Origin: Pseudomonadota bacterium
GTDB lineage: Bacteria > Pseudomonadota > Gammaproteobacteria > Burkholderiales > Burkholderiaceae_C
Assembly: GCA_023410975.1 (NCBI GenBank)
Contig: JAEYPG010000150.1
Coordinates: forward strand, 1-57,523
Direction: 5' to 3'
DNA: 57,523 nt
A model generated the notes under the pieces. The model was not told the DNA's origin and did no database searches. It saw nothing but the letters and a program-made list of their open reading frames with translations. This document shows, in pieces, positions 1 to 15,300 of the stretch. Made by a program: the position numbers and the translations under genes. How positions within the stretch are numbered: position 1 is the first letter of the stretch; each line of letters starts with the position of its first letter.

Positions 1-728
1 GGGCAAAGATGGCCAACGTCGCTGTCAATACGGCCAAGGTCGCGAAGACAGTACGCAATGGGGTCAAGGTGGCGAAGGCAGCACAGCTCGGCCAGCGATC
101 AACCATCATGCCGCCCCCGGTCATCGACAAGCTCGGTGGCCTGGAAATGTTGTCGCTGGGCTACTGGGGAGAGCGCCTGGGAACCCTGCTGGGTGGCGGC
201 CCGTCCGAGATCGAGGTGGTGGACCCGCAAGCGCTGGCCGAGCAGCAAGCCGCGCTGGTCGGCCTGGATGCGCAGGCTCAAGACTTGCGGCGCCGTCTCG
301 CACGCAACGAAGCCATCGCAAGCGAGCGTCAGCTCACTGGCTGGGCGATGGAGCACAACCAGAAGGAGCAGGCTCGTCTCCAGGCCGAGCTGGCACAGGT
401 CCAGTTGCGAGCAGAGCAAAGGCACCGGGATGCCCAGAAGCAGCTGCAGCAGGAGCGCAATGCCCAGATCTGGCGCCAAGCCGAGCGAGCCGTCACGCAC
501 TGGCTTCGCGGCTTCGACCAGCAGGCCGAGGCCATGAGCGAGCTGATGCGGGCCCATGTGCGCGGTCATTGGGAGAACCGCGTCGATGCACTGGTCAGCG
601 AACGTCTGGCCGATATCGACGAGCTCGCTGCTCAGGCCCAAGCAGGCGTTGAGGACAAGAAAGCCATGCTTGCACGCCTGCGCCAGGAAGCTCATGACAT
701 CGAGCGCGCCATGGCAGTACTGATCTGA
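1..728 (+). CDS. C-terminal part of a helical/coiled-coil protein, probably a dynamin-like GTPase (5' end outside the window)
   Basis: Frame is open from the window edge. Long Q/E/R-rich helical stalk-like sequence after a Gly/hydrophobic segment (LSLGYWGERLGTLLGGG). A dynamin-like GTPase lies downstream in the same operon. No GTPase motif is visible in the window. Confidence 0.45.
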   Translation, partial: AKMANVAVNTAKVAKTVRNGVKVAKAAQLGQRSTIMPPPVIDKLGGLEMLSLGYWGERLGTLLGGGPSEIEVVDPQALAEQQAALVGLDAQAQDLRRRLARNEAIASERQLTGWAMEHNQKEQARLQAELAQVQLRAEQRHRDAQKQLQQERNAQIWRQAERAVTHWLRGFDQQAEAMSELMRAHVRGHWENRVDALVSERLADIDELAAQAQAGVEDKKAMLARLRQEAHDIERAMAVLI

Positions 729-767
729 GGTACTGCTGCCTTGTCGGCCCAGGGCCGGTGGCATGCA

Positions 768-790
768 GTGGGCTGTGTCCACGGCCCACC
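768..790 (+). other. Intergenic GC-rich hairpin (possible mRNA stabiliser or attenuator)
   Basis: GTGGGCTGTG..CACGGCCCAC inverted repeat between the stop at 728 and the start at 810. No strong U-tract. Confidence 0.35.
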
Positions 791-809
791 TTACTGACAA
801 AGGTTTCTT

Positions 810-1271
810 ATGAATCTCCAGAGCGTGCTGGGATCCGCCAGCGAAACAGCGGTGGTTTACCGCTATCTCGACCTGTTGGCTGCTCGCAGTTCGGCCCTGG
901 AAAGGAGCATGAATCTGAACGAAGTGCACAGGCTGCAACAGGAAAACAGGCAGTTGCGCGAAGAGCTGGCGCGAGTGCAGAAACCATCAATACAGCAGCT
1001 ACTGGTGTTCCTTCCACTCATCTATCGCAACTTCTGGGGCACGGTGCGTCCCCATGACCTTGCGCTGCTGGCTGGTGAGCTTGACGTGCCACAGATTCCG
1101 TCGCCATGCCCGGAACCGGGGTCGGAAACACTCTCGCGTCTACGGCGTGAATTTCTCGCGCTGCCTGCGACAGAGCAGTTGCGGTTGGTAATTTTTTGCC
1201 AAGGCCTGCCTTATCCGTTGACGGTACGCCCTGAAATGCGTGCATTTCTGGAGAAAAAGAATGAAGTCTGA
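810..1271 (+). CDS. Hypothetical protein with N-terminal coiled coil
   Basis: 153-aa ORF preceded by AAAGG. Its stop overlaps the next start (1261). Confidence 0.75.
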   Translation: MNLQSVLGSASETAVVYRYLDLLAARSSALERSMNLNEVHRLQQENRQLREELARVQKPSIQQLLVFLPLIYRNFWGTVRPHDLALLAGELDVPQIPSPCPEPGSETLSRLRREFLALPATEQLRLVIFCQGLPYPLTVRPEMRAFLEKKNEV

Positions 1272-2010
1272 CGACGAAATTCGACTGGAGAAACTTCGCG
1301 CGAAATATTTCCCACCGGAAATCAAGTACAGCGATCTATTGCTGCTTCTTGCCAAGGATGAAAGTGTGCGCGAAGAGATTCGGCGCGTGGCATCCGAGGC
1401 TGCGTGGCACACGACGGAGGTAGATGTTTCCGATGCTGCTGCGATATCGGATAGGGGTTCGTCGGCGAGGCCCCATGAGGAAAAACTGTTTGAGGTGCAG
1501 GCGCCTCTTGCCCCCTCTTGCCGTGCAATACCAGTCGCCGCACCATTGCTAGCTGCATCACGGCCAGCTGTCGACCCGCTGAAGGACGCGATGGCGCCAG
1601 AGCTGGAGTTGCTGGCGTATGTGTGCGCAGATGAACAGTTGCGCAAAGCCTGGCTGGGAAATGCTGACGAGGACGAGGGACGACAACTCGTGCGCTTGAT
1701 CGCCGTGGCATCGCAGTGGGACCAAATCCTGCGCCTGTGGGAGCGGCTGGCCGAGCGCTGCAAGGAGGCACAGCGCTCGGCTACTGCAGCTGAACTGCAA
1801 ATCCTGAGTCACTGTCTGGCGGTGCACAACTTGATTTGGCGCGGACCACAGGCCCGGTTGCAAGCAGCCGTTGTTGGCTCTCCATGCGATGAACGCCTGC
1901 ACGAGCGTGGTACCGCAAATGGTCTTGTGGTGACTGCACAGTGGTTGCCGGGGTTGCTCAATGCCGCTGGGCAATTGCAGAAGCGGCCGCTGGTGGCAAC
2001 CAGACAATAA
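1261..2010 (+). CDS. GrpE-like protein (helical region + GrpE beta-domain-like C-terminus)
   Basis: ATG 1261 with GGAG RBS. C-terminal VGSPCDERLHE...GLVVTAQWLPGLLNAAGQLQKRPLV resembles the GrpE consensus GxxFDPxxHE...GxVxxxxxxGYxxxGRxxRPAxV. Lies directly upstream of an Hsp70-like gene. Confidence 0.55.
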   Translation: MKSDDEIRLEKLRAKYFPPEIKYSDLLLLLAKDESVREEIRRVASEAAWHTTEVDVSDAAAISDRGSSARPHEEKLFEVQAPLAPSCRAIPVAAPLLAASRPAVDPLKDAMAPELELLAYVCADEQLRKAWLGNADEDEGRQLVRLIAVASQWDQILRLWERLAERCKEAQRSATAAELQILSHCLAVHNLIWRGPQARLQAAVVGSPCDERLHERGTANGLVVTAQWLPGLLNAAGQLQKRPLVATRQ

Positions 2011-2036
2011 CATTGTCGCATTGAATAGACAGAAAA

Positions 2037-4817
2037 ATGTCTTCTCTCGGAAATATATTTAAAGCCTTGACGGAAACAATTTCAGCGGCTGCTGCTATGG
2101 TGCTGTCGGGACAACGGCAGAACTGGGCTGCCGTCTTGGTGGAGAAAGCAGTCGCAAGTGCAGAGACGGCTGCGCCTGCCGGATCGTTGCTCCGCGTGGA
2201 GCTGCGATCTGAATTTGTCAAGATACTTGGCCGGTATTTGAATGAACAAATTCTCCAGGCCGCCAAGGCAATGGCGAAGCAGCGGTTTTGGTGGGTAAAT
2301 TCGGGTGGGCAGAGAATTTTTGTGTACGACCGAGATTCCAAGCTGCTCTGGGAGGCTAGGCCCGACCCTCAAGAGAAAAGTTTACTTCGTGACGCCAGTA
2401 AGGTGGCGAGTGAACGGTCCACGGGTGGCCTTTCGGCGTGGAGATTGCCAACAGAAGCAGAAATTACGAAATTTTCGGGGGATAGGGCCAATCCGCTTCG
2501 CGCCGGTCGGAATGCTCGTTTGCTTGATGAATATGCTTGGTGTACATCGAAGTGCAGGATAGATCTGGACGACTTCTCCACTCGATATTCCGAGCAGGAG
2601 TCAGGCGCTATAGTCGCCTGCAACGACTTTGCGGCCAACGCTGGGCTAGAGGAGTTCATTGTCGCGGCTGTTGGACGACAATGGCAGGTATTTGCCTGTG
2701 GCGTGGATAATGCCGAAAATGTCATCGGGCCAGTGGATTCCAAAAACCTGCAGGCGGTCTATCGAGAGATAGACAATATTCCAGTCCGGCTGCCTGTACT
2801 GGATGCTGCTCAGTTCACCGACCCTCACAAGGGTCTGTGGGAATTCTGGGGCATGGACCCGCAGTGGCTGGTGGCACATAGCGTGCGGGCGCGTAATCCA
2901 GCACTCGACGTGCGCGACTGCAACGTGGCCATTGATTTCGGTACCAGCAGCACCGTCGTAGCCTACGACGACAACGATCAGCTCAAGCTCCTGCGCATCG
3001 GCGTCGGTGACTACTGGGAGCAGGAACGGCCGGCGCATTACGAGAATCCCACGGTACTGGAGTTCATCGATATCCGTGCGCTGCTTCGCTCCTGGCAAGA
3101 GCGCGCCTACCGTCCTGGCGTGGAATGGCAGCACGTGCGCTGCTCGCATGCCGCACTGCAGAATTTTCGCGACAACAAGAGCAACCCTCGCGTGGTCGGC
3201 AGTATCTTGGTCAAGCTCAAACACTGGGCGCTGCGCGAGGCTGACAAGGGAAGCCTGCGGCTGAGGGACCGCTCTGGCCCTGTAGGGGTCGAGTACGAAG
3301 TGGCGCCATTGACACAGCGGGAGCCGGTCAAGGGGCAACCACTGACTGTTGACTCCCAGGATCCGCTGGACCCCATCGAGTTGTACGCATGGTTCCTTGG
3401 CATGACCATCAACTGGCGTGGTCGTGGTCTGTTCCTGAGGTACTACATGACTTTCCCCGTGGCGTACCCGCGGCAGGTGAAGGACAGGATCCTGGCCTCG
3501 TTCCGTCGCGGCCTGCAGCGCAGCCTGCCAGCGACGCTGGTGGACCAGCCCGTATTTCAGAGCTTCAGCGTCGAGGAACGTGCGTCCGAGCCCGCCGCCT
3601 ATGCGGCTTGCGCCATGCGCGCACTTGGTATCCAGGCGACACACAAAGGCGTGGCCTATGCGGTGTTCGACTTCGGCGGCGGCACCACAGACTTCGACTT
3701 CGGCTATTACCGGCTGCCTGATGCCGATGAGGAAGATCAGGGGAAGGAACAGGTTTTCGAGCACTTCGGCGCAGCCGGCGACCAACTCCTGGGCGGCGAA
3801 AACTTGTTGGAGAACATGTGTTATATGGTGTTCCGCCACAACCTGAATGTCTGCCGCGAAAACCGGATTGCCTTCACCCGTCCGATGGGTGCCGAGGACT
3901 TCGCGGGCTCGGAGATGTTCTTGGAACAGACGCAGGCTGCCTCAACCAACACAGTGATGCTAATGGCGCGTCTGCGACCGCTGTGGGAAGAGGGCGGTTT
4001 GGGGGCGAACTCCACCGGCATGGAAACCATCGATCTACTGGATCGCGACGGTGGCAAGAGGCCGTGCCAGCTGGCAGTCCCGGTAGACCAGCTCAAAGCG
4101 TACCTGGCTCAACGGATCGAGCAGGGAGTACGTAACTTCCTGGCTGCGCTCAAGAACGCGTTCGCTGAGCGCCGACCTGACCATGTCCATGTGCTGCTGG
4201 CTGGCAATGCCAGCCGCTCGCGCTGGGTACTCGATTGTTTCGGGCTGCCCGGCGGCAGCGGTGATGCATCAACAGCCGAGCGAGTTGGTCACTATACCGA
4301 GTCGTTGTTTGACGGGAACCCTCCAACCTTGACCGTACACGAACCACTCGCGGCGCAAGAGGCAAACCTGTTCCATCCAACCGCCAAGACCGGGGTGGCG
4401 CTTGGCCTGCTGCAGTTGTGTCCTGGAGGTTCTGTCAAGGTCATCAACCGTGCCTTGCAGTACGCCAGCGACGAAGCGCCTTTCGCGCACCATGTCGGTC
4501 GGGTCCGGCAGGGCACCTTCCAAGCGGGTCTGCTCCAAGGAGCGGTGTATCGCCGGTGGCACGAGCTGGGCGTACCCAGTGAGCGCGTCTTCAACCTGTA
4601 TCACACGCAATCCCCCCGTGCAGCATCCGGCCAGGTTCAGCAGGGTGAGTCAGGCCTGTACAAGAAGCGGTTGGACCTGGCAAGCGAGGTCAAGGGCCAC
4701 AAGGTCTTTGCGCAAGCCGTCGGCCCCTCCGAGATCGAGATCTGCACCGCCGTGTCGACCGTGGCTATCGAGCAAGGTGACTTCGAAAACATGATGACGA
4801 TTGCACTCGAAGGTTGA
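2037..4817 (+). CDS. DUF1566/Lcl-like domain fused to an Hsp70/actin-fold (ASKHA) ATPase
   Basis: Phosphate-1 VAIDFGTSST, connect SEPAAYA, phosphate-2 VFDFGGGTTD, LGGENL and adenosine-like VLLAGNAS. N-terminal DxxxxLLWE...GGLSAWRLPTEAE is typical of DUF1566. Confidence 0.8.
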   Translation: MSSLGNIFKALTETISAAAAMVLSGQRQNWAAVLVEKAVASAETAAPAGSLLRVELRSEFVKILGRYLNEQILQAAKAMAKQRFWWVNSGGQRIFVYDRDSKLLWEARPDPQEKSLLRDASKVASERSTGGLSAWRLPTEAEITKFSGDRANPLRAGRNARLLDEYAWCTSKCRIDLDDFSTRYSEQESGAIVACNDFAANAGLEEFIVAAVGRQWQVFACGVDNAENVIGPVDSKNLQAVYREIDNIPVRLPVLDAAQFTDPHKGLWEFWGMDPQWLVAHSVRARNPALDVRDCNVAIDFGTSSTVVAYDDNDQLKLLRIGVGDYWEQERPAHYENPTVLEFIDIRALLRSWQERAYRPGVEWQHVRCSHAALQNFRDNKSNPRVVGSILVKLKHWALREADKGSLRLRDRSGPVGVEYEVAPLTQREPVKGQPLTVDSQDPLDPIELYAWFLGMTINWRGRGLFLRYYMTFPVAYPRQVKDRILASFRRGLQRSLPATLVDQPVFQSFSVEERASEPAAYAACAMRALGIQATHKGVAYAVFDFGGGTTDFDFGYYRLPDADEEDQGKEQVFEHFGAAGDQLLGGENLLENMCYMVFRHNLNVCRENRIAFTRPMGAEDFAGSEMFLEQTQAASTNTVMLMARLRPLWEEGGLGANSTGMETIDLLDRDGGKRPCQLAVPVDQLKAYLAQRIEQGVRNFLAALKNAFAERRPDHVHVLLAGNASRSRWVLDCFGLPGGSGDASTAERVGHYTESLFDGNPPTLTVHEPLAAQEANLFHPTAKTGVALGLLQLCPGGSVKVINRALQYASDEAPFAHHVGRVRQGTFQAGLLQGAVYRRWHELGVPSERVFNLYHTQSPRAASGQVQQGESGLYKKRLDLASEVKGHKVFAQAVGPSEIEICTAVSTVAIEQGDFENMMTIALEG

Positions 4818-4823
4818 GACGGC

Positions 4824-5162
4824 ATGGATGCTGGAAACGATGCCATGGTTCAGGAGGCGCAAGCACAGGAGCGCCGGTTCCTGGAAGAACTCATGGCACC
4901 TGGGGTAGGGAAGCACACCGACGCTTTTCTTAAACGGCTGGCCATGTCAGCCGCGCAGACGCGCAAGACGGCGGAGCTGCTTGCCATGCAGGCCGAACTG
5001 CTCAAGGAACAGGCCCGGGTTGCCGAGCAGCGGGAGGCTCTCGTCCAGGCCAAGGCCCAGCTGTCGCAGGGCAAACGTTCGCTGACGCTGGAGAAGAAGC
5101 GGCTGCAGCAGGAAGCCGAGGAAGCGGCTCGCTACAGGACCCGCGGGAAGAGGTCCAGATGA
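4824..5162 (+). CDS. Small coiled-coil protein
   Basis: 112-aa Q/E/A-rich ORF. ATGA overlap with the next gene. Confidence 0.7.
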   Translation: MDAGNDAMVQEAQAQERRFLEELMAPGVGKHTDAFLKRLAMSAAQTRKTAELLAMQAELLKEQARVAEQREALVQAKAQLSQGKRSLTLEKKRLQQEAEEAARYRTRGKRSR

Positions 5163-5881
5163 TCGAGGACGTGGTATCCCGCCTGCGCCGGCAGTTGACG
5201 GCAGACGTGAAGCGCATCCACGTGTCGGGACACGGTGCCAGCGCCGCGGTGGCCCTGCAGCGGCTGCAGGCCGTGGCGGAACACTCACCGGCCATCCTCG
5301 GATTGCTGGCCGAGCCCTGGATCGCTGGGATGGTTTCCGAGGAGGTCATGGCGGTGCTCCTGCATTGCGCCCGCATCCATCTGTACGCACGCGTCCTGGA
5401 CGACGCCGTCGACGAGTGCCTTCCCGTGCATCGCCTGAACCTGCTGCGCGCGCAGCCGATGTACTGGGAAGCGGTGCAGGGCATCGGCGCGCTGGCGTCA
5501 AGGGACGTGTCTCGGGAGGCCGTGCAGCTGGTTGCCGAGACCGTCGCGGCGGTGCAGCTGGATGACCGGCGCCGCGAGCCTGCCCAGTGGGGCGCCAAGA
5601 ACCATCACTTGCTGCTGGTGCCGTTGCTGTTGTCCGGAGGCAGCGCCTCGTACCGCACCTGTCGAGCGGGACTTTCGACGCTGATCGCCCTGATCCAGGC
5701 CGGCGACGAGTGGCGGCAGTTCGAGCTTGATGAACTACAGCGACGTGACGAATTTCTCTCGTTTCTCTGCGGTTGCCTGGACAACAACATGCTCGGCATG
5801 CTCAGTGCGCATGGCTGGCGTGGCGCCGCCGAGCGCATCGTCTGGAATGCGCGCCAGTTGCTGGCCGCGCTGTCCGCGTGA
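5159..5881 (+). CDS. Class I isoprenoid synthase / prenyltransferase-fold protein
   Basis: All-helical pattern. First Asp-rich motif LYARVLDDAVDE (DDxxD), KN motif, and degenerate second motif LIQAGDE (cf. FQIxDD). Confidence 0.55.
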   Translation: MIEDVVSRLRRQLTADVKRIHVSGHGASAAVALQRLQAVAEHSPAILGLLAEPWIAGMVSEEVMAVLLHCARIHLYARVLDDAVDECLPVHRLNLLRAQPMYWEAVQGIGALASRDVSREAVQLVAETVAAVQLDDRRREPAQWGAKNHHLLLVPLLLSGGSASYRTCRAGLSTLIALIQAGDEWRQFELDELQRRDEFLSFLCGCLDNNMLGMLSAHGWRGAAERIVWNARQLLAALSA

Positions 5882-5902
5882 GCCTTCTATCTTTGAGTGA
5901 CC

Positions 5903-7417
5903 ATGAGCCCTTCAAGCGATCAGGATATGGACAACTTCCCGCGCTCACAAGCGTTGGGGCAATGCGTAAGGGAATTTTCCGAGCGGGCGCTGGCCGGTGC
6001 CGCCTTGACTGACGGCGTGCTGACCGCTCGCGTGGTCGGAGAGTTCTCGGCGGGAAAAACCCGTCTCATCAGGGAGCTGTTGGGCGAGTTGCTTCCCGAG
6101 ACGCTGCTGCCGGTGAGCTCTCTGGAACGGCAGACCCGCCTTCAACTTGAAGTAACCCACGGGGACAAGCCCGGGCTGGCGCTGATCAAGCGAGACGCCG
6201 ACTTCCGAGCGGCCGAGGTCGTCAAGGCTTTCGAGCGCTTTCCCGGCCGGGGCGAGGTGCTGGACTACGATCCCATGCAGTACCGTCTGCGGCTTTCGGT
6301 GCCGGAGCCGCGGTTGATCCTGTCCGACGGTGATGGCTTCACCGCAAATGATGGGCCGAAGCGGCTGTTCCTGATCGATACGCCGGGGTGGAACTCCGGT
6401 GATGACGAACTGGCCGAGCGCGAAGCGTCTTCCGTCATCATGGGGCACCATAACCTGGCGCTGGTTTATGTCTGCCAGGCCTCGCGGCTGGACGGAGTGC
6501 TCAATGCCAAGCGGCTGCGCGAGTTTGTCGAGGCCTTGGCTGCGGCTGAATTCCTGGACCAAACGAAGCTGCTCTTCATCATCACGAGCTGTCCGGCTAC
6601 AGAGGCAGCCGGGCTCGAAAGCAGGGCACGAGGTCTGGTCCTGCGTCTCTGGAGCGAACTGGGACATGATCCAGACGATCTCGGCCTGGACGTCTTCTGC
6701 GTGGACTTCCAGGAGATGTCGGCTGTAGCGCTGCAGAACTTCCGCGAGAGCTTCTGGAAGAGCTTGCTGGGGCCGCTGAGCCAGAGCGAAATTTCAGCAG
6801 ATCCCATGGTCAACGCGCTGCGCAGGTGGCCGCCGCATTGGGATATCCGGCCGCAACTGCGCAGTTCTGCCCAAATGCTTGCACGGGTCGAGATCCTGCT
6901 GCGCAAGGCGCTCCAGGATGACGAGTTCGTCGCAAGCATGAGCATGTACCGCCTCATGGGTCTGACCCAGGCTGAACTGCGCAAGCGCGTCATGTCGGCC
7001 TGGCTCAAGCAGCTTGACTGCGACGCCTCGGCTCTGGAGGATTGGACGGTGGAGCCCTTGTCCGAGGATCATCCCTTGGCCAACTGGTGGCAATCCTACT
7101 GGCTACCTGCCCTGGCGCAGGCACTGGCCCCGATCCGAAACTTCTTCGCGCAGGCCCGGCAAGCCATCGATGCTCTCACGCCCGAGGTCAAGGACCTCAA
7201 GAAGCACCTGCACGCTGCGCTGGCACATTCGCATGCCGAAGCCGTTCTGGCGCTTGACGGCAGCTTCGCGTGCCTGATCAGGACAGCACAGGAACTGTTG
7301 GGCGAGCCTGCAGCCGAAAAACGCGTCGCCACGCTACTGACCTTGTCGATGCTGCAGGCCCGCTACGAGGACTACTACGCCCAGCACGTCATAGAGCTGT
7401 CTGGAGAGGCTGCGTGA
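5903..7417 (+). CDS. Bacterial dynamin-like GTPase
   Basis: G1 VVGEFSAGKT, LLPVSSLERQT (G2), G3 LIDTPG, followed by a helical C-terminal half. G4 appears degenerate (IITSC). Start could be 5897, 5903 or 5927. Confidence 0.8.
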   Translation: MSPSSDQDMDNFPRSQALGQCVREFSERALAGAALTDGVLTARVVGEFSAGKTRLIRELLGELLPETLLPVSSLERQTRLQLEVTHGDKPGLALIKRDADFRAAEVVKAFERFPGRGEVLDYDPMQYRLRLSVPEPRLILSDGDGFTANDGPKRLFLIDTPGWNSGDDELAEREASSVIMGHHNLALVYVCQASRLDGVLNAKRLREFVEALAAAEFLDQTKLLFIITSCPATEAAGLESRARGLVLRLWSELGHDPDDLGLDVFCVDFQEMSAVALQNFRESFWKSLLGPLSQSEISADPMVNALRRWPPHWDIRPQLRSSAQMLARVEILLRKALQDDEFVASMSMYRLMGLTQAELRKRVMSAWLKQLDCDASALEDWTVEPLSEDHPLANWWQSYWLPALAQALAPIRNFFAQARQAIDALTPEVKDLKKHLHAALAHSHAEAVLALDGSFACLIRTAQELLGEPAAEKRVATLLTLSMLQARYEDYYAQHVIELSGEAA

Positions 7418-7881
7418 TGATGGACCTTCTTGTGCGCAGCCTGCCGGAGCAATTTATCCGCGATGTCGCCCGTACCAATGCTGCCCTTGATCGGCAACGA
7501 CATCGCTTGCGCGAGCTCGAGCAGCTATACGCCTTGACGCTCCGTGACAATCGGCGGCTCAGGGCTGAAAACGAAACTCTGCTGAAGCAGGTCGGCGACC
7601 TGCAACTCGAGAAGGTCATGTGCGAGCACCATCTTGACAAGGTGATGCAGGAGCTCAGAGCGGAGAACCAGGACTTGTTGAGAGAAGTCGTAGACCTGCG
7701 GCAAAAGCGGATCGTGTACGAGCGCGAGCTCATCAGACTCGCACAGGGAACTGGTGCATCGATCCCTACCTCAACCGATGTACCGCCGGGCAGGAAGACC
7801 TGTTCGAGGTGCGGCCACTTGGAGTTCGGGAGGCTTGTCCGCTGCCCGGCGTGCAACAACGCGGGTAAATGGTGGCGATGA
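7417..7881 (+). CDS. Coiled-coil protein with C-terminal zinc ribbon
   Basis: TGATG overlap with the dynamin stop and GGAG RBS. Heptad region, then CSRC...CPAC. Confidence 0.7.
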   Translation: MMDLLVRSLPEQFIRDVARTNAALDRQRHRLRELEQLYALTLRDNRRLRAENETLLKQVGDLQLEKVMCEHHLDKVMQELRAENQDLLREVVDLRQKRIVYERELIRLAQGTGASIPTSTDVPPGRKTCSRCGHLEFGRLVRCPACNNAGKWWR

Positions 7882-7960
7882 CGTCCATGGCCTCAATGCC
7901 AGGCACTCGTTTTGATAGCCGTGGCATCCACCAGGCCCGCACCATGCCCTTTTCAAGTCG

Positions 7961-8398
7961 ATGATGAGCCTGCTTGCCACGAGCCTGCCGGAAAGGTACC
8001 TGTCCGAGATTGCCAAGGTCAGGGGTGTAGGTGCACACACGTTGCTCAACAAGTTGCGTGACCAGCAAAGCCGGCTTGAAAACCTGGAGCTGGCCAATGC
8101 ATCGCTGCTCGAGAAGATGCAAGGCATGGAATATCACCTTGTACGGCTGGTCAGCGCGCACCAAAGCATAAGGGTCCCCCTGATATTCGAAAACGATGTC
8201 GTCTTCCCAGTCCTGATCGAAGAGTGGCTTGTGTGCGAAGGCCAGTACTTTGACAACTCGCAGCCGGTATGCAGGACGAACCGAGGCGTCTTCGGGTGGA
8301 GCCTCACGGGCATCCTGGAGCGGGTCCTCACGCGGGCTGGCGAGCAGGTGGTCAACGCCGGGGACGCCATTGGCAGTGTCATCGTGCTCCAACGGTAG
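7961..8398 (+). CDS. Coiled coil + biotinyl/lipoyl-like domain lacking the acceptor Lys
   Basis: IEEWLVCEGQYF...PVC...GILERVLTRAGEQVVNAGDAIGSV matches the lipoyl barrel-sandwich hybrid pattern. No ETDK or MKM hairpin. Confidence 0.55.
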   Translation: MMSLLATSLPERYLSEIAKVRGVGAHTLLNKLRDQQSRLENLELANASLLEKMQGMEYHLVRLVSAHQSIRVPLIFENDVVFPVLIEEWLVCEGQYFDNSQPVCRTNRGVFGWSLTGILERVLTRAGEQVVNAGDAIGSVIVLQR

Positions 8399-8754
8399 CT
8401 GGAACACGCGGCAAATTGGCCATGTCCTGGCGGCGGCGTTCCTGCCCCCGGGCGGACGCAGCGCCACTGCATCGTGGCCCGAGTACGAATCGTCACTCCT
8501 GCCACGAACGCAGGCCGTCCCTGGCCTGCGGCATTGTTCCTTGGCGGTTCATGGACGCCGTCCTCTCGTTCGGCCCGAGCGAACGAGACAGCCCACCGTC
8601 CGGCTGGTCATGGATCTCGGCTGCCCTGCCTGGCAAGCCGGGTAGACCGCTGCACGCTGTAGTCGGGGGCCATCTGCCTGGCTGAAGAAGGCGGGGCGGC
8701 CCGTGAAGCTGCCTCCGTGTTTTCGTCGGTGTCCGGCCATGACGGTCCAGCGTG

Positions 8755-8771
8755 GCGACACGACCTGTCGC
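8755..8771. promoter_or_regulatory. Palindromic operator GCGACA-cgacc-TGTCGC upstream of recC (putative WYL-regulator site)
   Basis: Perfect 6-5-6 inverted repeat ending 77 bp before the recC ATG. Same motif occurs twice at 31525-31590. Confidence 0.65.
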
Positions 8772-8847
8772 GTCCATATGTTTCAATGGTTGCTGAACGT
8801 ATTTCGACCACGGTGCCGACGCTGGCTCAACCAAGGAAACCGCCCCG

Positions 8848-11800
8848 ATGCCTGCCTCCCTGCCCACCGGCCTGATGCTCATCCACGGCAACCACCCGGA
8901 GGAGCTGCGCCAGTTGCTGGTGTCGTGGCTGCGCAGCCACCCGCTGGCCCCGCTGGAGACCGAGACGATCCTCGTGCAGAGCAATGGCATCGCGCACTGG
9001 CTGCGCCTGGCGCTGGCGCAGGACGCCGAGGGCGAGGGCAGCGGCGAGGCACCCGGCTGCGGCATCGCCGCCGCGCTGGAGCTGTCGCTGCCGGCGCGCT
9101 TCCTGTGGCGCGCCTACCGCGCCGTGCTCGGCGCCGAGGAGGTGCCCGAGCAGTCGCCCTTTGACAAGCCGCTGCTGGTGTGGCGGCTCATGCGGCTGCT
9201 GCCGCAGCTGCTCGAGCAGGAGGTCTATGCACCGCTGCTGCGTTTCCTGGCCTCGGACGAGGACCTGCGCAAGCGCTTCCAGCTCGCCGAGCGCCTGGCC
9301 GACCTGCTGGACCAGTACCAGGTGTACCGGGCCGACTGGCTCGCGGCCTGGGCTGCAGGGAACGACGTGCTCGTCCGTGCCGATGGCACGCGCCAGCCGC
9401 TGCCCGAGGAGCAGCGCTGGCAGGCGAGCCTGTGGCGTGCGCTGCTGTCGGACGTCGAGGGCGAAGGTGCCGGGCTGCCGGCACAGCGTGGCCGGGCCGC
9501 GGTGCACGAGGCCTTCCTGCAGCGCGTGGCGCAGTGGGGCGACGGCGAGCGCCCGGCGGGCCTGCCGCGCAGGCTCGTCATCTTCGGCATCTCCGCCCTG
9601 CCCAGGCAGTCGCTGGAAGTGCTGCACGCGCTGTCGCGCTGGACGCAGGTGCTCATGTGCGTGCACAACCCCTGCGAGCACCACTGGGCCGACATCGTTG
9701 CTGACAAGCACCTGCTGCGCGCCACGCGCAGCCGGCAGCAGCGCCGCGAGGGCATGCCCGAGCAGATTGCCGAGGAGGGTCTGCACCTGCACGCGCACCC
9801 GCTGCTGGCGGCCTGGGGGCGGCAGGGTCGCGACTTCATCGGCTTGCTCGACGAGTACGACAGCGATGCCGAGCGCGCGGGCTACCGCGTGCACTTCGAG
9901 GCCATCCGCCAGCGCATCGACCTGTTCGCCAGCCCCGGCCAGTCCTGCCTGCTGCACCAGCTGCAGGACGACATCCGCGACCTGCGCCCGCTGCGCGAGA
10001 CGCGCCAGCGCTGGCCGGCGGTGCAGCCCGATGACGGCTCGATCCAGTTCCACGCCGCGCACAGCCCGCAGCGCGAGGTGGAGGTGCTGCACGACCAGCT
10101 GCTGGCCGCGTTCAACCAGGATCCCGGCCTGCGCCCGCAGGACGTCATCGTCATGGTGCCGGACATCGACGCCTACGCGCCCCACATCCAGGCCGTGTTC
10201 GGCCTGGCCGAGCGCGGCGACGCGCGCCACATCCCCTTCCACGTCGCTGACCTCGGGCGCCGCCAGCATGACCCGCTCGTCAGCGCCCTGGCACGGCTGC
10301 TGGAGCTGCCCAACGCGCGCGTGGCCGCCAGCGACGTGCTGGCGCTGCTCGAGGTCGAGGCCGTGCGCCGGCGATTCAGCATCGAGGACGATGCCGTGCC
10401 GCTGCTGCAGCGCTGGATCCAGGGGGCCGGCGTGCGCTGGGGCCTGCACGCGGCACACCGCGGCCAGCTCGGCCTGCCCGACACGTCCACCGCCAACACC
10501 TGGCTGTTCGGCCTGCGCCGCATGCTGCTGGGCTACGCGGTCGGCGGCACCGGCGGGCCCTGGCGCGACATCGAACCCTTCGACGAGATCGGCGGCCTGG
10601 AGGCGGTGCTGCTCGGGCCGCTGGCCCGGCTGCTCGAGCGGATCGAGGCGGCCTGGCGCGTCCTCGGCGAGGACGCCACCGCCCAGCAGTGGTGCCAGCG
10701 CCTGCGTGCCCTGGTGTACGATTTCTTCGACCCCGGACAGGGCAGCGACGCCTACACGCTGCAGCAGCTCGACGAGGCCCTGGAGCGCTGGCAGGAAGGC
10801 TGCGAGGCGGCGCGGCTGGACGCCGCGCTGCCGCTTTCGGTCGTGGCCGAGCACTGGCTCGCGCAGATCGAGGAGGGGGGCTTGTCGCAGCGGTTCCTCG
10901 GCGGCGCGGTGACGTTCGCGACGCTCATGCCGATGCGCGCCATCCCCTTCCGGTACGTGGGCCTGCTGGGCATGAACGACGGCGACTACCCGCGCACGCG
11001 CACGCCCATGGATTTCGACCTCATGGGGCGCGACTACCGCCCGGGCGACCGTTCGCGGCGCGAGGACGACCGCTACCTGTTCCTCGAAGCGCTGCTGTCG
11101 GCGCGCGAGCGGCTGCTCGTGTCGTGGGTCGGCCGCAGCGTCAACGACAACACCGTGCGCCCACCCTCGGTGCTGGTGAGCCAGCTGCGCGACCACCTCG
11201 CGGCCGGCTGGCGCCTGGCCGGCTGCGAGGCGCGCTCGCAAGCCCTGCTGGAGGCGCTCACCGTCGAGCACCGCCTGCAGCCCTTCAGCCCGGACTACTT
11301 CGCGTCCAGCCCCGGCAGCCGGCTCTTCACCTATGCCGGCGACTGGCGCCAGGCCGACGACCGTCCCGTCCCGGGCGGGGAGAGCCTGCCGCCGCTGGCG
11401 CGCACCGAGCCCCTGCGGCTCTCCGAGCTCGGCAGCTTCCTGCGCCACCCCGTCAGGGCCTTCTTCCGGGAGCGGCTCAAGGTGAGCTTCGACCTGGAGG
11501 ACGCCGCCAGCGAGGACCAGGAGCCCTTTGCGCTCGACGGGCTGCAGATGTGGGCGCTGTGGGACGAGCTCATCGGCCTGCAGGCCCGGGCGCTGCGGGA
11601 CGGGCAGCCCCGGCAGGCGGCACTGGACGAGGGCCTGGCGCGGCTGCAGCGCCGCGGCGTGCTGCCCTGCGGCGCCTTTGGCGAGCTGCTGGCCGAGCGG
11701 CTGGCCGAGCCTATGGAAGACCTGTTCAGCCGCTATGAGCAGGCCCTGGAGCGCTGGAGCCAGCCCGCGCCGCACGACGAGGAGGTGCGCTGGCGCTGCA

Positions 11801-12381
11801 CGGCCCATGGGCTCGCCATCGACGACCGGCTGCACGGGCTGCGCCTAGACGGCTCGCTCCAGCGAGCCCGCGTGGTGCTGCAGACCAGCGACGCGGTCAA
11901 GAACGGGCACTACCAGCATCACCACCTCGTCCACCATTGGGTGGCGCACCTGGCGGGCAACCTGGGAGACCAGCCGCTGACGACGCTGGTGGTCAGCAAG
12001 GCCGGCAACGTCACCTTCGCGCCGCTGGACCCGGCCGAGGCGCGCGTTCACATGGACGCCATCCTGGGCGCCTGGCACGAGGGCATGCGCCGGCCGCTGC
12101 CGCTGGCCGCAAAGACGGGCTTCGCCTGGCTGTCCGACGCGGCCAGCGATGGAAAGAAGGACACCGCGGCCCTGGTCTACGAGGGGGACGGCCGCTGGCA
12201 TGACGGCGAAGTGCAGTCCTGTGCCTACCTGCAGCGGGCCTGGGCCGACTACGCGAGCCTGAGTGCCAGCGGCGAGTTCGCGCGGCTGGCCGGCTCTCTC
12301 CTGCAGCCGCTCTACGCCGCATCGTTCGCCGGCAACAGCAACCCGAAGCAGGCTGCCACTGCGGCCGGAGAACCCGCATGA
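8848..12381 (+). CDS. recC: Exodeoxyribonuclease V gamma subunit RecC
   Basis: 1177 aa. ILVQSNGIAHWL, LADLLDQYQVYRADW, HSPQREVEVLHDQLL, TLMPMRAIPF, DRSRREDDRYLFLEALLSAR. Confidence 0.96.
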   Translation: MPASLPTGLMLIHGNHPEELRQLLVSWLRSHPLAPLETETILVQSNGIAHWLRLALAQDAEGEGSGEAPGCGIAAALELSLPARFLWRAYRAVLGAEEVPEQSPFDKPLLVWRLMRLLPQLLEQEVYAPLLRFLASDEDLRKRFQLAERLADLLDQYQVYRADWLAAWAAGNDVLVRADGTRQPLPEEQRWQASLWRALLSDVEGEGAGLPAQRGRAAVHEAFLQRVAQWGDGERPAGLPRRLVIFGISALPRQSLEVLHALSRWTQVLMCVHNPCEHHWADIVADKHLLRATRSRQQRREGMPEQIAEEGLHLHAHPLLAAWGRQGRDFIGLLDEYDSDAERAGYRVHFEAIRQRIDLFASPGQSCLLHQLQDDIRDLRPLRETRQRWPAVQPDDGSIQFHAAHSPQREVEVLHDQLLAAFNQDPGLRPQDVIVMVPDIDAYAPHIQAVFGLAERGDARHIPFHVADLGRRQHDPLVSALARLLELPNARVAASDVLALLEVEAVRRRFSIEDDAVPLLQRWIQGAGVRWGLHAAHRGQLGLPDTSTANTWLFGLRRMLLGYAVGGTGGPWRDIEPFDEIGGLEAVLLGPLARLLERIEAAWRVLGEDATAQQWCQRLRALVYDFFDPGQGSDAYTLQQLDEALERWQEGCEAARLDAALPLSVVAEHWLAQIEEGGLSQRFLGGAVTFATLMPMRAIPFRYVGLLGMNDGDYPRTRTPMDFDLMGRDYRPGDRSRREDDRYLFLEALLSARERLLVSWVGRSVNDNTVRPPSVLVSQLRDHLAAGWRLAGCEARSQALLEALTVEHRLQPFSPDYFASSPGSRLFTYAGDWRQADDRPVPGGESLPPLARTEPLRLSELGSFLRHPVRAFFRERLKVSFDLEDAASEDQEPFALDGLQMWALWDELIGLQARALRDGQPRQAALDEGLARLQRRGVLPCGAFGELLAERLAEPMEDLFSRYEQALERWSQPAPHDEEVRWRCTAHGLAIDDRLHGLRLDGSLQRARVVLQTSDAVKNGHYQHHHLVHHWVAHLAGNLGDQPLTTLVVSKAGNVTFAPLDPAEARVHMDAILGAWHEGMRRPLPLAAKTGFAWLSDAASDGKKDTAALVYEGDGRWHDGEVQSCAYLQRAWADYASLSASGEFARLAGSLLQPLYAASFAGNSNPKQAATAAGEPA

Positions 12382-15300
12382 CGACCGCAACCGCCCTGGA
12401 CCCGCTGCGCTTTGCGCTGCGCGGCAGCCGACTCATCGAGGCCAGTGCCGGCACCGGCAAGACGTTCACCATCGCGGCGCTGTACCTGCGCCTCGTGCTC
12501 GGCCACGGCGCGGCGGACGAGGCATTCAGCCGGCCGCTGACGCCGCCGGAGATCCTGGTCGTCACCTTCACCGACGCAGCCACCAAGGAGCTGCGCGACC
12601 GCATCCGGGCCCGGTTGGCCGAGGCGGCCGAGTGCTTCCTGGCTGATGCGGCGGGGGTGTACCCGCGTCCCCGAGGCGAGGACCTGCTGCACGACCTGCG
12701 TGCGGAGTACCCACCGCACGCCTGGCCGGGCTGCGCGCGCAGGCTGCAGCTGGCCGCGCAGTGGATGGACGAGGCCGCGGTGTCGACGATCCACGGCTGG
12801 TGCAACCGCATGCTGCGCGAGCATGCCTTCGACAGCGGCAGCCTCTTCACCCAGCGCCTGGAGACCGACCAGTCGGAGCTGCTGGCCGAGGTGGTGCGCG
12901 ACTACTGGCGCTGCTTCATGGTGCCCCTGGACCAGGACGCGGCGCGCCGGGTGGCGGGCTGGTGGGCCTCGCCCGCGGCGCTGCAGGAGGCCGTCGCCGC
13001 AGTGTTGCCGCACGTGGGTCGCCTGGCCTCGTCTGCGGCGCCGCTGCAGGCCCTGGCTGCGGCCGACGCGGCGCATGCACAGCGCCTGGCCGAGCTCAAG
13101 GCGCCCTGGCGGGAGTGGGTGGACGAGTTGCAGGCGTTGATCGAGGAGGCCCGCGAGCGAAAGCTCTTCGACGCCCGCAAGCTCAACCGTGCCAACAGCG
13201 CCAATTGGCTCGCCGCGCTGGCCGCCTGGCGCGACGACCCGGCCCAGGTCCAGCCTGCCCTTACCGCCACGGCCTGGGAACGCCTGACACCCGACGGCCT
13301 GCAGGCGATCTGGAAAGACGCCGCCGAACCGCCCCGGCACCAGGCGCTGGACGCGCTTTGCAGCTTGCGCGATACGCTGGGGGAACTGCCCACGGGCCGT
13401 GAGGACCTGCTGCGCCATGCCGCCCACTGGGTCGCCACGCAGTTCGAAGTGGAGCGTGCCCGGCGCGCCCAGATGGGCTTCGACGACCTGCTGACGCGGC
13501 TCGACGACGCGCTGCGCGGCCCCAACGGCGCGCGGCTGGCCAGCGTGATCCGTGCGCAGTTCCCGGTGGCGCTGATTGACGAGTTCCAGGACACCGACCC
13601 CGTCCAGTACCGGATCTTCGACGCCATCTACCGCGTGCGCGACAACGACCAGGACACCGCCCTGGTGCTCATCGGCGACCCGAAGCAGGCGATCTACGCC
13701 TTCCGCGGCGCCGACATCCACACCTACCTGACCGCGCGAGCGGACACGGCCGGGCGGCTGTACACGCTGCGGCGCAACTTCCGCTCCACGCAGGCCATGG
13801 TGGAGGCGACCAACCGCTGCTTCGACGCCGCCGAGCAGCGCCCGGGAGCGGGGGCATTCCTGTTTCGCACGGCCAGCGACAACCCAGTGCCGTTTTTGAC
13901 CGCCAGCGCGCATGGCCGCGACGACGCCCTGCTGGTCGAGGGCCGCACGGCGCCAGCGCTGACGGTGTGGCGCCTGGCGGCCCCCGGTGACGCCAAGCGG
14001 TATGACAAGGGCGCCTACATCGAGGACATGGCACACGTTTGCGCCAGCGAGATGGTGCGCCTGCTCAACCTCGCGCAGCGGGGCCAGGCCGCTTTCGCCG
14101 GCGCCCATGGCGCCGTGCGCCCGCTGCAGCCGGGCGACATGGCGGTGCTGGTGAACAACCGCGCCGAGGCCGCCGCCGTCCGCCAGGCGCTGGACGAGCG
14201 CGGCGTGCGCAGCGTCTACCTCTCCGAGCGCGACAGTGTCTACCAGCGGCCCGAGGCCCTGGAGATGCAGCGCTGGCTGGCCGCCTGCGCCGCGCCGCAG
14301 GACGGCCGCGCGCTGCGGGCAGCTCTCGCCACGCCGACGCTCGCCCTGGACTGGGCGACGCTGGACCGCCTCAACCACGACGAGGCGGCCTGGGACGGCT
14401 ACGTGCTGCAGTTCCGCGGCTACCAGGAGTGCTGGCGCCGCCAGGGCGTGCTGCCGATGCTGCGCCGGCTGCTGCACGACTTCCGCGTGCCCGCACGGCT
14501 TCTGGGGGCGGGTAGCGGCGGGGAGCGCCGCCTCACGGACTTGCTGCACCTCGCGGAGCTGCTGCAGCACGCCAGCACCGCGCTCGACGGCGAGCATGCG
14601 CTGATCCGCCACCTGGCCGAGCAGCGGCAGCAGGGCGCTGGCGCCGGTGGCGACGCGCGCCAGCTGCGGCTGGAAAGCGATGCCGACCTGGTGCAGGTCA
14701 TCACCATCCACAAGTCCAAGGGCCTGGAGTACCCGCTGGTCTTCCTGCCCTTCGCCTGCAGCTTCCGCGCGACGCGCAAGGGCGACGCGCCGCTGAAGTG
14801 GCATGACCAGGAGGGCCGGCTGCAGCTGGACCTCGCCGGCCAGGGTGGCGCAGTCACGGCCGCGGACCGCGAGCGGCTGGGCGAGGACCTGCGCAAGCTC
14901 TACGTGGCCCTGACCCGGGCGCGCTACGCGACGTGGATCGGCACCGCGCCGGTCGAGGGCCTGGGGCACTGCGCCTTCGGGCACGTCGTCGGGGGCGATC
15001 TGCGTGCAGGAGTCGATGCGCTGGCCAGCGGTTGTGCGCACATCCACGTCATCGACGACCCCGAGCCGGCTGAAGAGCGCTTCGCGGTCCAGGCGCCAGC
15101 CGCGGCGGCCGGCGGCGCGCGTGTGCCCGAGCGCCGCCTGCACGAGAACTGGTGGATCGCCAGCTACACGGCACTGCATACCGCGGACAGGGCCGGTCCC
15201 GAGACCGCGCAGGAGGAGGTGTTTCGCGAGGCCGCAGCGGCGCATGCCATACCGAGCGTGCCATTGTCCCCACGGTCCCCGGCGGATGCGGGACCTTCTG

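Follow-up and report, generated by a model that had tools for sequence, protein, structure and literature searches.

Why does one bacterial operon hold dynamin-family GTPases together with an Hsp70-like ATPase and a GrpE-like protein of its own? The question is raised by the first 8,398 nucleotides (nt) of contig JAEYPG010000150.1 from a Pseudomonadota bacterium of the Burkholderiaceae_C (assembly GCA_023410975.1), whose 57,523 nt, one entire contig (C548 of genome G000), are called the window throughout. An earlier note, made from the letters alone, had read these genes as a chaperone-gated, membrane-remodelling module for conflict or defence; its observation turns out to be largely right, and its interpretation is partly supported. 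We find that the genes belong to one operon of ~13 genes, not nine, which is split by an assembly gap, and that this operon is very probably a conserved and undescribed unit joining dynamins to an Hsp70-like and a GrpE-like protein.

One operon on two contigs

The open reading frame (ORF) listing shows nine + strand ORFs packed within window positions 1-8398, designated w1 to w9 below (lengths in amino acids, aa), followed by the edge of the segment to which they belong:

3..728, + strand: w1, C-terminal 241 residues of dynamin B (dynB), open at its 5' end, the rest lying on contig C264
810..1271, + strand: w2, 153 aa, no known family, short coiled coil and then a conserved C-terminal domain
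1261..2010, + strand: w3, GrpE-like protein, listed as an ORF from GTG 1240, database form from ATG 1261
2037..4817, + strand: w4, 926-aa lectin-like/Hsp70-like protein, from fold searches and motifs
4824..5162, + strand: w5, 112-aa coiled-coil protein with positional homologues in loci L002 and L013
5159..5881, + strand: w6, 240-aa all-helical protein with a DDAxDE motif, its ESM Atlas model suggesting a class I isoprenoid-synthase-like fold
5897..7417, + strand: w7, or dynamin C (dynC), 506-aa divergent dynamin-like P-loop GTPase, borderline to the Dynamin_N family
7417..7881, + strand: w8, 154 aa, coiled coil and C-terminal CxxC...CxxC zinc ribbon, lineage-specific accessory gene
7961..8398, + strand: w9, 145 aa, w8-like N-terminus and beta-rich C-terminal half, lineage-specific accessory gene
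8399..8837, no strand: right-hand edge of the acquired segment, from DNA similarity to congeners and the shift in G+C content at third codon positions (GC3)

Successive junctions from w1 to w9 measure +81, -11, +26, +6, -4, +15, -1 and +79 nt, in agreement with the earlier description of nine co-oriented genes with overlapping or near-abutting ends, and 449 nt separate w9 from recC. The ORF of w8 is listed from GTG 7270; its ATG at 7417 overlaps the stop of dynC. All nine ORFs display the coding periodicity GC1 > GC2 < GC3 and a membrane-spanning stretch is predicted in none of the nine proteins. None of them reaches a curated cut-off in Pfam or NCBIfam, and no PADLOC model, applied without cut-offs throughout this analysis, identifies them. 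A look-up of sequencing runs with window positions 1-8398 listed no RNA run, and the DNA shares were at most 0.13.

The front of the operon was found by searching the bacterium's own genome with the large dynamins of a Malikia locus (L002), which led to contig C264. This contig carries, in order, a WYL regulator, a NERD-UvrD helicase, a 121-aa ORF, a complete dynA (64% identity to the L002 dynamin over residues 1-770) and the start of dynB, and it also holds the end of a histidine-kinase gene. Residues 2-512 of dynB reach the end of C264 and residues 510-747 are found in the window. C264 ends with exactly the 13 nt with which the window begins, and the frame is continuous across the join. The features on C264 with assigned coordinates are:

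C264:1125-2069: WYL regulator (WYL 47.7, WCX 41.0 and HTH_11 27.3 bits, all above cut-offs)
C264:2222-3859: NERD + UvrD-type helicase (locus L127; weak PADLOC 'NERD+UvrD' match, E 1.5e-12)
C264:6755-8290: first 512 residues of dynB, from the own-genome search and Dynamin_N

The earlier reading of w1 as a probable dynamin C-terminus is correct, because the dynB frame continues from the Dynamin_N-bearing ORF on C264; w1 moreover shares 58% identity over 240 aa with the end of the second Malikia dynamin (L002:4791-7037, 748 aa, Dynamin_N 55.1 bits) and corresponds to the C-terminal stalk region of dynB. The nine window genes are therefore the back two thirds of the operon: four further genes, together with the front of dynB, sit on C264, so that the window does not contain the head of the unit as had been supposed. 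The C264 regulator also matches the PADLOC WYL model (E 1.1e-27). The helicase and the 121-aa ORF, placed between the WYL gene and dynA, are absent at the Malikia locus; since it is missing there, the helicase may represent a small defence gene in its own right, captured behind the WYL regulator of the unit.

A conserved order with an exchangeable partner

To place this operon among its relatives, 27 loci were compared using 24 query proteins, and three locus types can be told apart. In type A, the order dynA-dynB-(w2)-(w3)-w4-(w5)-w6-dynC is found in 4/4 dynamin-carrying loci at 33-61% identity: our genome (C264 and the window), L002 (Malikia), L013 (a metagenome contig) and L016 (genome G057). 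The recurrence of this order bears out the view of a single multi-gene unit and shows the synteny in other genomes on which that view depended. L002 begins with a WYL regulator and carries three extra small proteins between dynB and w2. L016 is a distant member with the same order as the window: its w4 is 38% identical to the window protein, its w3 is recognisable by profile only (hhalign E 3.4e-4 over 99 columns), and w2 and w5 are recognised by position only, as coiled-coil proteins of 222 and 416 aa. A cut contig, L003, carries dynC-w3-w4. Additional genes were seen in individual loci: a 772-aa protein without P-loop motifs between the two dynamins of L016 (L016:4881-7199), a MotA/ExbB-like membrane protein after its dynC (L016:18048-19999), and a double-AAA ATPase after dynC in L013.

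Type B loci (L014, L015, L096 and L017) carry another nucleoside triphosphatase (NTPase). L015, L096 and L017 have in common a HerA/mad8-like ATPase, two w4 paralogues and a membrane protein of 226 aa; in L014, a cut contig, the 226-aa partner and the two paralogues are visible and the ATPase is not. Both L014 and L015 carry w2-like and w3-like genes. L015 lies on a mobilizable Acinetobacter plasmid among copies of the insertion sequence (IS) IS3, an integrase and HipA-type genes, and its unit is preceded by a WYL regulator and followed by a HEPN protein. In L017 (L017:9139-15038, G329:C3), both w4-like genes are fragmented, each into two or three ORFs, and may be decaying copies. Because w2, w3 and w4 recur with dynamins in type A or with HerA in type B, this triad is the constant element and its NTPase partner is exchangeable. 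WYL regulators head the unit in three of these loci, namely our genome, L002 and L015.

These comparisons bear on whether the operon is one system at all. An Eleos-like dynamin set and a separate Hsp70-like module might be adjacent, independent units joined by chance or island dynamics. The triad or its genes do occur without dynamins in L014, L015 and L096, the upstream helicase and the downstream w8 and w9 are not conserved in other loci, and bacterial dynamins, usually paired in operons, commonly stand alone as pairs (PMC6104087). However, the triad lies between dynA-dynB and dynC in all four dynamin-type loci, the module borders overlap or abut (w1/w2 +81, w6/w7 +15, w7/w8 -1), and w6 (4/4 loci) and dynC (5/5) are seen only alongside w4. 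We consider such an assembly of independent units very unlikely.

Type C consists of 19 loci (L077-L095) with a w4-like gene (36-42% identity) and none of the other components. The gene is chromosomal, in a conserved neighbourhood of amidase, methyltransferase, pseudouridine synthase and hybrid histidine kinase genes; the protein has ~960 aa (L093:8750-12133 is an example) and is encoded downstream of the kinase, whose domains read PAS-HisKA-HATPase-REC-Hpt. A conserved 140-aa protein of no known family is encoded upstream in 10/19 of these loci, and was rejected as a form of w2, w3 or w6 (hhalign E 0.13 or worse). Type C is present in 19/23 genomes of one family of another class, and in 15/15 of those of good quality. 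Such vertical inheritance of a stand-alone clade means that the w4 family is not purely a mobile defence gene. A quick tree placed w4 of type A (window, L002 and L013, plus L003) inside a clade with type B, apart from type C, with a Shimodaira-Hasegawa-like approximate likelihood-ratio test (SH-aLRT) value of 100; SH-aLRT is the only support measure of this midpoint-rooted tree, in which two L096 rows, wrongly picked ORFs with a very long branch, were ignored and L016 stays on a long unresolved branch.

The type C loci introduce the main rival to a defence reading, in which the operon is a membrane-maintenance or envelope-stress machine without immune role, an accessory fitness island whose dynamins would mend or reshape the inner membrane under stress and whose Hsp70-like/GrpE-like pair would assemble or recycle them. 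It would account for a vertically kept w4 gene that has a hybrid histidine kinase, RNA-modification genes and a cell-wall amidase as neighbours, for dynamin-type loci without a toxin-type effector, and for the MscS channel and the MotA/ExbB-like membrane protein found after the unit in L002 and L016; bacterial dynamins, IniA and DynA among them, are also described as responding to membrane-damaging drugs. It fits less well with the sporadic distribution and foreign composition of the operon, the WYL regulators in three loci, the plasmid on which the same triad, flanked by IS elements and toxin-antitoxin genes, is coupled to HerA and HEPN, and the defence-type neighbours. On balance, a purely maintenance function appears rather unlikely to us.

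w4 is a divergent Hsp70-like ATPase

From its N-terminus, the product of the central gene, w4, consists of a helix region, a putative lectin-like (Lcl_C/DUF1566-like) domain (residues ~84-225), a nucleotide-binding domain of divergent Hsp70 type (~295-810) and, at the C-terminus, a beta domain (~819-923). Its AlphaFold2 (AF2) model has a mean predicted local distance difference test (pLDDT) score of 69.9. The best Foldseek matches are all full-length DnaK/Hsp70 (E 2.1e-12, ~675 columns). With VIA-align, a search independent of Foldseek, Hsp70-family chains occupy ranks 1-6 (Z 16.5-15.2, root-mean-square deviation, rmsd, 3.8-6.9 over 289-382 residues), above actin, MreB and FtsA, actin and MreB having Z of at most 14.5. 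The motifs D300-F-G-T-S, E518-P-x-A-Y-A-A, D545-F-G-G-G-T-x-D, G586-G-E-N and G723-N-x-S-R-S are invariant in 19/19 sequences and align with the DnaK phosphate 1, EPTAAA, phosphate 2, LGGEDF and adenosine motifs, respectively. By predicted fold and motifs, w4 is thus confirmed as a divergent Hsp70. Its divergence is such that Pfam HSP70 gives no match at E <= 0.01 and that the NCBIfam DnaK/HscA models score 13-16 bits against cut-offs of 620-822.

The N-terminal domain is well modelled. The label DUF1566 given to it in the earlier note, as part of a DUF1566-Hsp70-like fusion, stays below threshold (Lcl_C, PF07603, 20.5 bits against 34.9), whereas the Hsp70 part stands; the two paralogues in L015 score 28.6 and 29.5 bits, and the Lcl_C family is precomputed on 15/120 listed homologues. 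At the other end, the C-terminal beta domain may correspond to a substrate-binding domain, because the VIA-align alignment of BiP to the model reaches residue 926. The family counts at least 867 proteins at E <= 0.001 (8,000 candidates scored); among the 120 homologues listed, the source names are all 'hypothetical protein', bar one UniRef 'Molecular chaperone DnaK'.

A putative nucleotide-exchange partner, w3, and the upstream protein w2

The product of w3 has an N-terminal helical part, a disordered linker, and C-terminal helices with a small beta domain. In Foldseek searches of the PDB with its AF2 model (pLDDT 86.5, 29 sequences), ranks 1-9 are all GrpE or GrpEL1, with E from 5.6e-3 to 0.63 and none at or below 1e-3. 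VIA-align, run over 48,161 chains, also placed GrpE at ranks 1-3 (Z 5.7, 5.5 and 5.2; model residues 151-249), with fits of rmsd ~4 over 77-86 residues, and the ESM Atlas gave the same weak GrpE lead. The protein has no Pfam match, GrpE (PF01025) included, and a PF01025 search of our genome found only the canonical grpE gene, on contig C203, and not w3. When the w3 profile was compared with the PDB, only coiled-coil and VPS13 rows appeared, which we judged spurious. Given that the methods agree in their ranking and that w3 adjoins an Hsp70 gene, we read w3 with moderate confidence as having a GrpE-like fold, without sequence support. The GrpE-like protein of the earlier note therefore holds for fold rankings by two methods and fails in the sequence tests, and the private Hsp70/GrpE-like pair likewise stands at fold level, with low scores and no sequence support for its GrpE-like member. 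A complex prediction between w4 residues 290-815 and w3 residues 100-249 scored 0.13 against a mark of 0.32, which says nothing either way. The w3 family numbers 105 members, none of them named.

Homologues of w2 are found directly upstream of the GrpE-like gene in L002, L013, L014 and L015 (32-54% identity). No family in Pfam, NCBIfam or PADLOC reaches a cut-off on w2, and the possibility that w2 is itself a GrpE was rejected (hhalign E 0.66). The DnaJ family is absent from the Pfam matches of the nine window proteins and of the L002, L015, L016 and C264 neighbours.

Three dynamins and their small partners

Both large GTPases exceed the Pfam Dynamin_N cut-off of 27 bits on C264 (dynA 80.3, dynB 67.8), and their L002 orthologues match, in the PDB, the Nostoc bacterial dynamin-like protein (BDLP, 2j68; 8.7e-16), the Campylobacter Cj-DLP (5owv), IniA (6j72) and mitofusin; on these sequence matches, dynA and dynB are true bacterial dynamins. 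The third, dynC, has orthologues in L002, L013, L016 and L003, of which the L002 protein aligns to positions 3-127 of the 168 of the Dynamin_N profile. Its G1 (GEFSAGKT) and G3 (DTPG) motifs are present and an NKxD motif was not found in it, so that its sequence is best described as that of a divergent dynamin-like GTPase. PDB matches to its profile were RBP2b rows, judged spurious.

The all-helical w6 protein has homologues at the same position in L002, L013 and L016. Its LDDAxDE motif is invariant in 4/4 sequences, and D81, D82 and D85 are invariant in 36/36 sequences; at the second site, invariance is limited to Q180 and E184, with A181 close to it. The ESM Atlas model has a predicted template modelling (pTM) score of 0.83 and resembles a farnesyl-diphosphate synthase cluster (template modelling score 0.69), a geranylgeranyl-diphosphate synthase small-subunit cluster (0.65), a UbiA cluster (0.63) and a terpene synthase cluster (0.62); note that these ESM Atlas rows, the only source of the fold, are marked as leads by the tool itself. 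A w6 search returned 100 proteins, none of them named. An ankyrin-like short motif that the w6 profile matched in the PDB at E 5.7e-4 with four sequences faded to 0.29 with 36, and was discarded. Homologues of w5 occupy the matching position in L002 (E 5.6e-13) and L013 (E 2e-7), the position being filled by the 416-aa coiled-coil protein in L016.

At the end of the operon, the coiled-coil zinc-ribbon protein w8 is as first described, the CxxC...CxxC pattern being readable in the translation, but the lipoyl-like label of w9 finds no counterpart (0 Pfam families, none in NCBIfam). The first 20 residues of w8 and w9 are alike (hhalign E 3.1e-4). Neither has a homologue in any other locus examined; they are thus not conserved parts of the system. 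At the Malikia locus, three small proteins lie between dynB and w2 (L002:7125-7556, 7574-8089 and 8091-8744). All three have a coiled coil and a strong N-terminal motif in common; their C-terminal domains are lipoyl-like (weak Biotin_lipoyl) or zinc ribbons, and an OST-HTH domain opens the third. The architecture of w8 and w9 is that of this trio: a short N-terminal helix, a coiled coil, then a zinc ribbon or beta domain; their sequences, however, show no significant similarity. We considered an N-terminal docking motif common to both sets and rejected it: a non-circular hidden Markov model (HMM) test ranked w9 fourth (E 4.4) and w8 outside the top 12, and the reverse search found nothing.

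Acquisition and genomic neighbourhood

The operon is missing from 5/5 congeners, and a true homologue was found in one of 60 relatives (G057), two further matches among the latter being short generic Hsp70s. It is present in 2/400 genomes of the class. At phylum level, matches occurred in 52/400 genomes; the 19 fetched with flanks were all type C, and a further locus, L096, was type B. Single-sequence scans gave two loci each in genome contigs and metagenome contigs. When viral contigs were scanned with the w4 alignment, 16 loci but no family member came up, all 16 being short generic Hsp70 matches of ~80-150 residues within w4 residues 472-655.

In all five congeners, DNA similarity to window positions 7400-10400 starts no earlier than 8838 (query position 1439), 10 nt before the ATG of recC. 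G+C content is 0.58-0.64 in the operon against 0.68-0.74 next door, and GC3 is 0.61-0.83 against 0.92-0.94 in recC and recB. The operon is horizontally acquired and foreign in composition.

Such a history could also mean that the operon serves a mobile element itself, through entry exclusion, membrane remodelling for transfer or competition between elements. Besides the patchy distribution and the foreign composition, this finds some ground in the variant on a mobilizable plasmid, beside an integrase and IS elements. Yet genes for conjugation, replication or an integrase were not seen on C264 or in the window's segment, and the single viral-contig scan contained no family member; we consider a service to the element very improbable.

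Downstream of the operon follow recC, recB, recD, and genes for a GmrSD-type protein, a 5'-nucleotidase and a PDDEXK_4 protein. The GmrSD-type protein (18581-21760) has 1059 aa with GmrSD_N and GmrSD_C domains and is Orf5/HEC-06/SspE-like in PADLOC; the PDDEXK_4 nuclease (27439-28938) matches the PADLOC candidate PDC-S26. Because these two genes lie downstream, a defence-island setting is reasonable, though recBCD is not itself an island gene. The earlier placement of the unit at the head of such an island is right as to the defence-type genes, which occur on both sides, but the head of the unit is on C264, outside the window. Patches of low G+C content (0.48-0.51) at 26-28 kb and 44-48 kb of the window suggest further acquired DNA. 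The genome has three RecC paralogues (100%, 71% and 48% identity; regions window 8848-18124, G000:C395:12805-16335 and G000:C145:3952-7344). The recC DNA of the window is 84% identical to one contig of congener G004, but identity falls to 67-68% for a second G004 copy and for the copies of the other four congeners. The recBCD set of the window may itself be an extra copy.

Comparison with known systems

Full-text searches found no paper joining bacterial dynamins with an Hsp70-like/GrpE-like pair, the supplements of two comparative-genomics papers lying outside the search; with no PADLOC, Pfam or NCBIfam model either, the statement that no named system has this composition holds. The operon combines two known kinds of accessory system, one based on dynamins and one on Hsp70 with GTPases.

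Among the former is 'Eleos', which we take to be the anti-phage system name for LeoABC of enterotoxigenic Escherichia coli, represented in PADLOC by models named LeoA and LeoBC. LeoABC is made of three dynamins (PMC4159319), and the likeness lies in three dynamin-family GTPases, two long and one shorter, encoded in one operon in an accessory or island setting. At the level of sequence, the large dynamins match LeoA weakly (38-48 bits, E 1e-10 to 2e-13), w7 and its orthologues score 13.5-16.3 bits with LeoA, and LeoBC is matched only in L016 (20.8 bits). In contrast to our operon, where the Hsp70-like, GrpE-like, w2, w5 and w6 genes sit between the dynamins, Eleos is without these five. Paired dynamin-like proteins (Nostoc BDLP, Cj-DLP1/2, IniA and DynA) are similar in their tandem genes of ~750-790 aa; we found none of these operons described with an Hsp70-like/GrpE-like insert or with a third, short dynamin and an isoprenoid-synthase-fold protein. 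DynA guards Bacillus subtilis against phage at the membrane (PMC12998192).

Among the latter, the GAP1-N2 systems (Kaur, Burroughs, Iyer, Aravind 2020, PMC7159879) likewise pair paralogous TRAFAC GTPases with HSP70 and GrpE, have a predicted role in conflict, and combine a constant NTPase core with variable partners. They differ in being built of DO-GTPases, GAP1 and FNIII-repeat proteins, often with a DnaJ fusion, and in occurring chiefly in actinobacteria and firmicutes, whereas our operon has Dynamin_N GTPases, no J domain that we could find, and proteobacterial hosts. The word 'dynamin' is absent from the available text of that paper, and Pfam scans of the operon GTPases returned Dynamin_N only, the presence of DO-GTPase and GAP1 models in the Pfam copy used being unverified. 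CnuD of the CoCoNuT type III McrBC systems (Bell et al. 2024, PMC11090510) is similarly a divergent Hsp70-like ATPase in a GTPase-based defence operon, often with HEPN. Its partners are a McrB-type GTPase and coiled-coil nucleases and its ATPase motifs are described as degenerate, in contrast to w4, whose catalytic motifs are invariant and which has a GrpE-like gene adjacent; neither GrpE nor dynamin occurs in the available text (0 occurrences each). A 2026 preprint (10.64898/2026.10.19.760177) names HSP70-like NTPases among possible switches and, separately, dynamins among immune GTPases. Finally, the operon shares with canonical DnaK-GrpE(-DnaJ) the Hsp70 fold with phosphate-1, phosphate-2, EPxAxAA and LGGE-type motifs and an adjacent protein with a predicted GrpE-like C-terminal fold, and differs by the additional N-terminal lectin-like domain of w4, the lack of a J-protein and the lack of any Pfam HSP70 or GrpE match.

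A proposed model of an Hsp70-type switch for dynamin effectors

How could these components work together? Bacterial dynamins protect membranes and limit phage, and WYL regulators are found at the head of defence operons; in PADLOC, WYL models are filed under CRISPR-associated signalling. The operon probably serves defence or membrane protection, and a defence role is plausible. In the model that we put forward, the WYL regulator would keep the operon switched off pending a signal. The triad w2 + w3 + w4 would form a self-contained, portable, ATP-driven sensor and switch, in which the lectin-like N-terminal domain or the C-terminal beta domain of w4 may bind the trigger or client and w3 would reset w4 through nucleotide exchange. 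Because no J-protein is present, w2 or w5 may stand in for it. The triad would control a swappable effector module: in type A, the three dynamins would tether, seal or deform the inner membrane, and w6 might assist them by binding a prenyl-diphosphate lipid; in type B, the output would be the HerA-like ATPase and the HEPN RNase. For the whole of this model, an acquired ~13-gene operon in which an Hsp70-type switch drives dynamin effectors, with a likely role in conflict with phages or mobile elements at the membrane, we put the chances at about even.

A number of results weigh against it. Only four dynamin-type loci were examined of at least 867 w4 family members, and no toxin or nuclease effector is recognisable in these loci. 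The vertically kept type C clade fits a housekeeping origin, and this housekeeping-like distribution weakens guilt by association. In w4, model residues 318-513 are poorly predicted. The scores linking w3 to GrpE are weak, with Foldseek E of at least 5.6e-3 and Z below the tool's caution line of 8, and its hhalign comparison with a 12-sequence GrpE alignment (E 0.023) was matched by 1/20 shuffles. The earlier call of a dynamin-like GTPase at 5897-7417, sound in its G1 and G3 motifs, meets a Dynamin_N score of 26.7 bits, just under the cut-off of 27, and the dynC profile finds no dynamin in the PDB at E <= 0.1. For w6, the second metal-binding Asp-rich motif is absent, none of 36 family members matches an isoprenoid-synthase Pfam model at E <= 1, hhalign comparisons with isoprenoid synthases (E 0.16 and 0.28) fall within the shuffle range, and none of the 55 family representatives among 1.84 billion bridges to known synthases. 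Since the second motif and a sequence link to synthases are both lacking, its 'prenyltransferase-fold' label stays a fold-level lead, although the DDxxD-type motif noted at the outset is indeed invariant.

A stronger form of the model is tentative, and we regard it as a possibility on the doubtful side. It would make the operon a new class of immune or membrane-guard system, in which a dedicated Hsp70-type ATPase, with its GrpE-like factor and lectin-like sensor, loads or unloads a dynamin trio on the inner membrane at a site that w6 marks via a prenyl-diphosphate lipid, the same switch being re-used for HerA and HEPN. To our knowledge, the mechanism by which bacterial dynamins are switched on is not known, and Hsp70-like ATPases have been predicted as switches of conflict systems but never with dynamins. 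The operon brings three protein families without any annotation, w2, w3 and w6, into this picture, and it offers a compact, clonable case in which to ask whether a private Hsp70/GrpE pair controls dynamin assembly. It also raises whether one Hsp70 switch can drive different effectors and, if the proposal is true, would be a bacterial counterpart of the eukaryotic Hsc70-driven coat and dynamin cycles.

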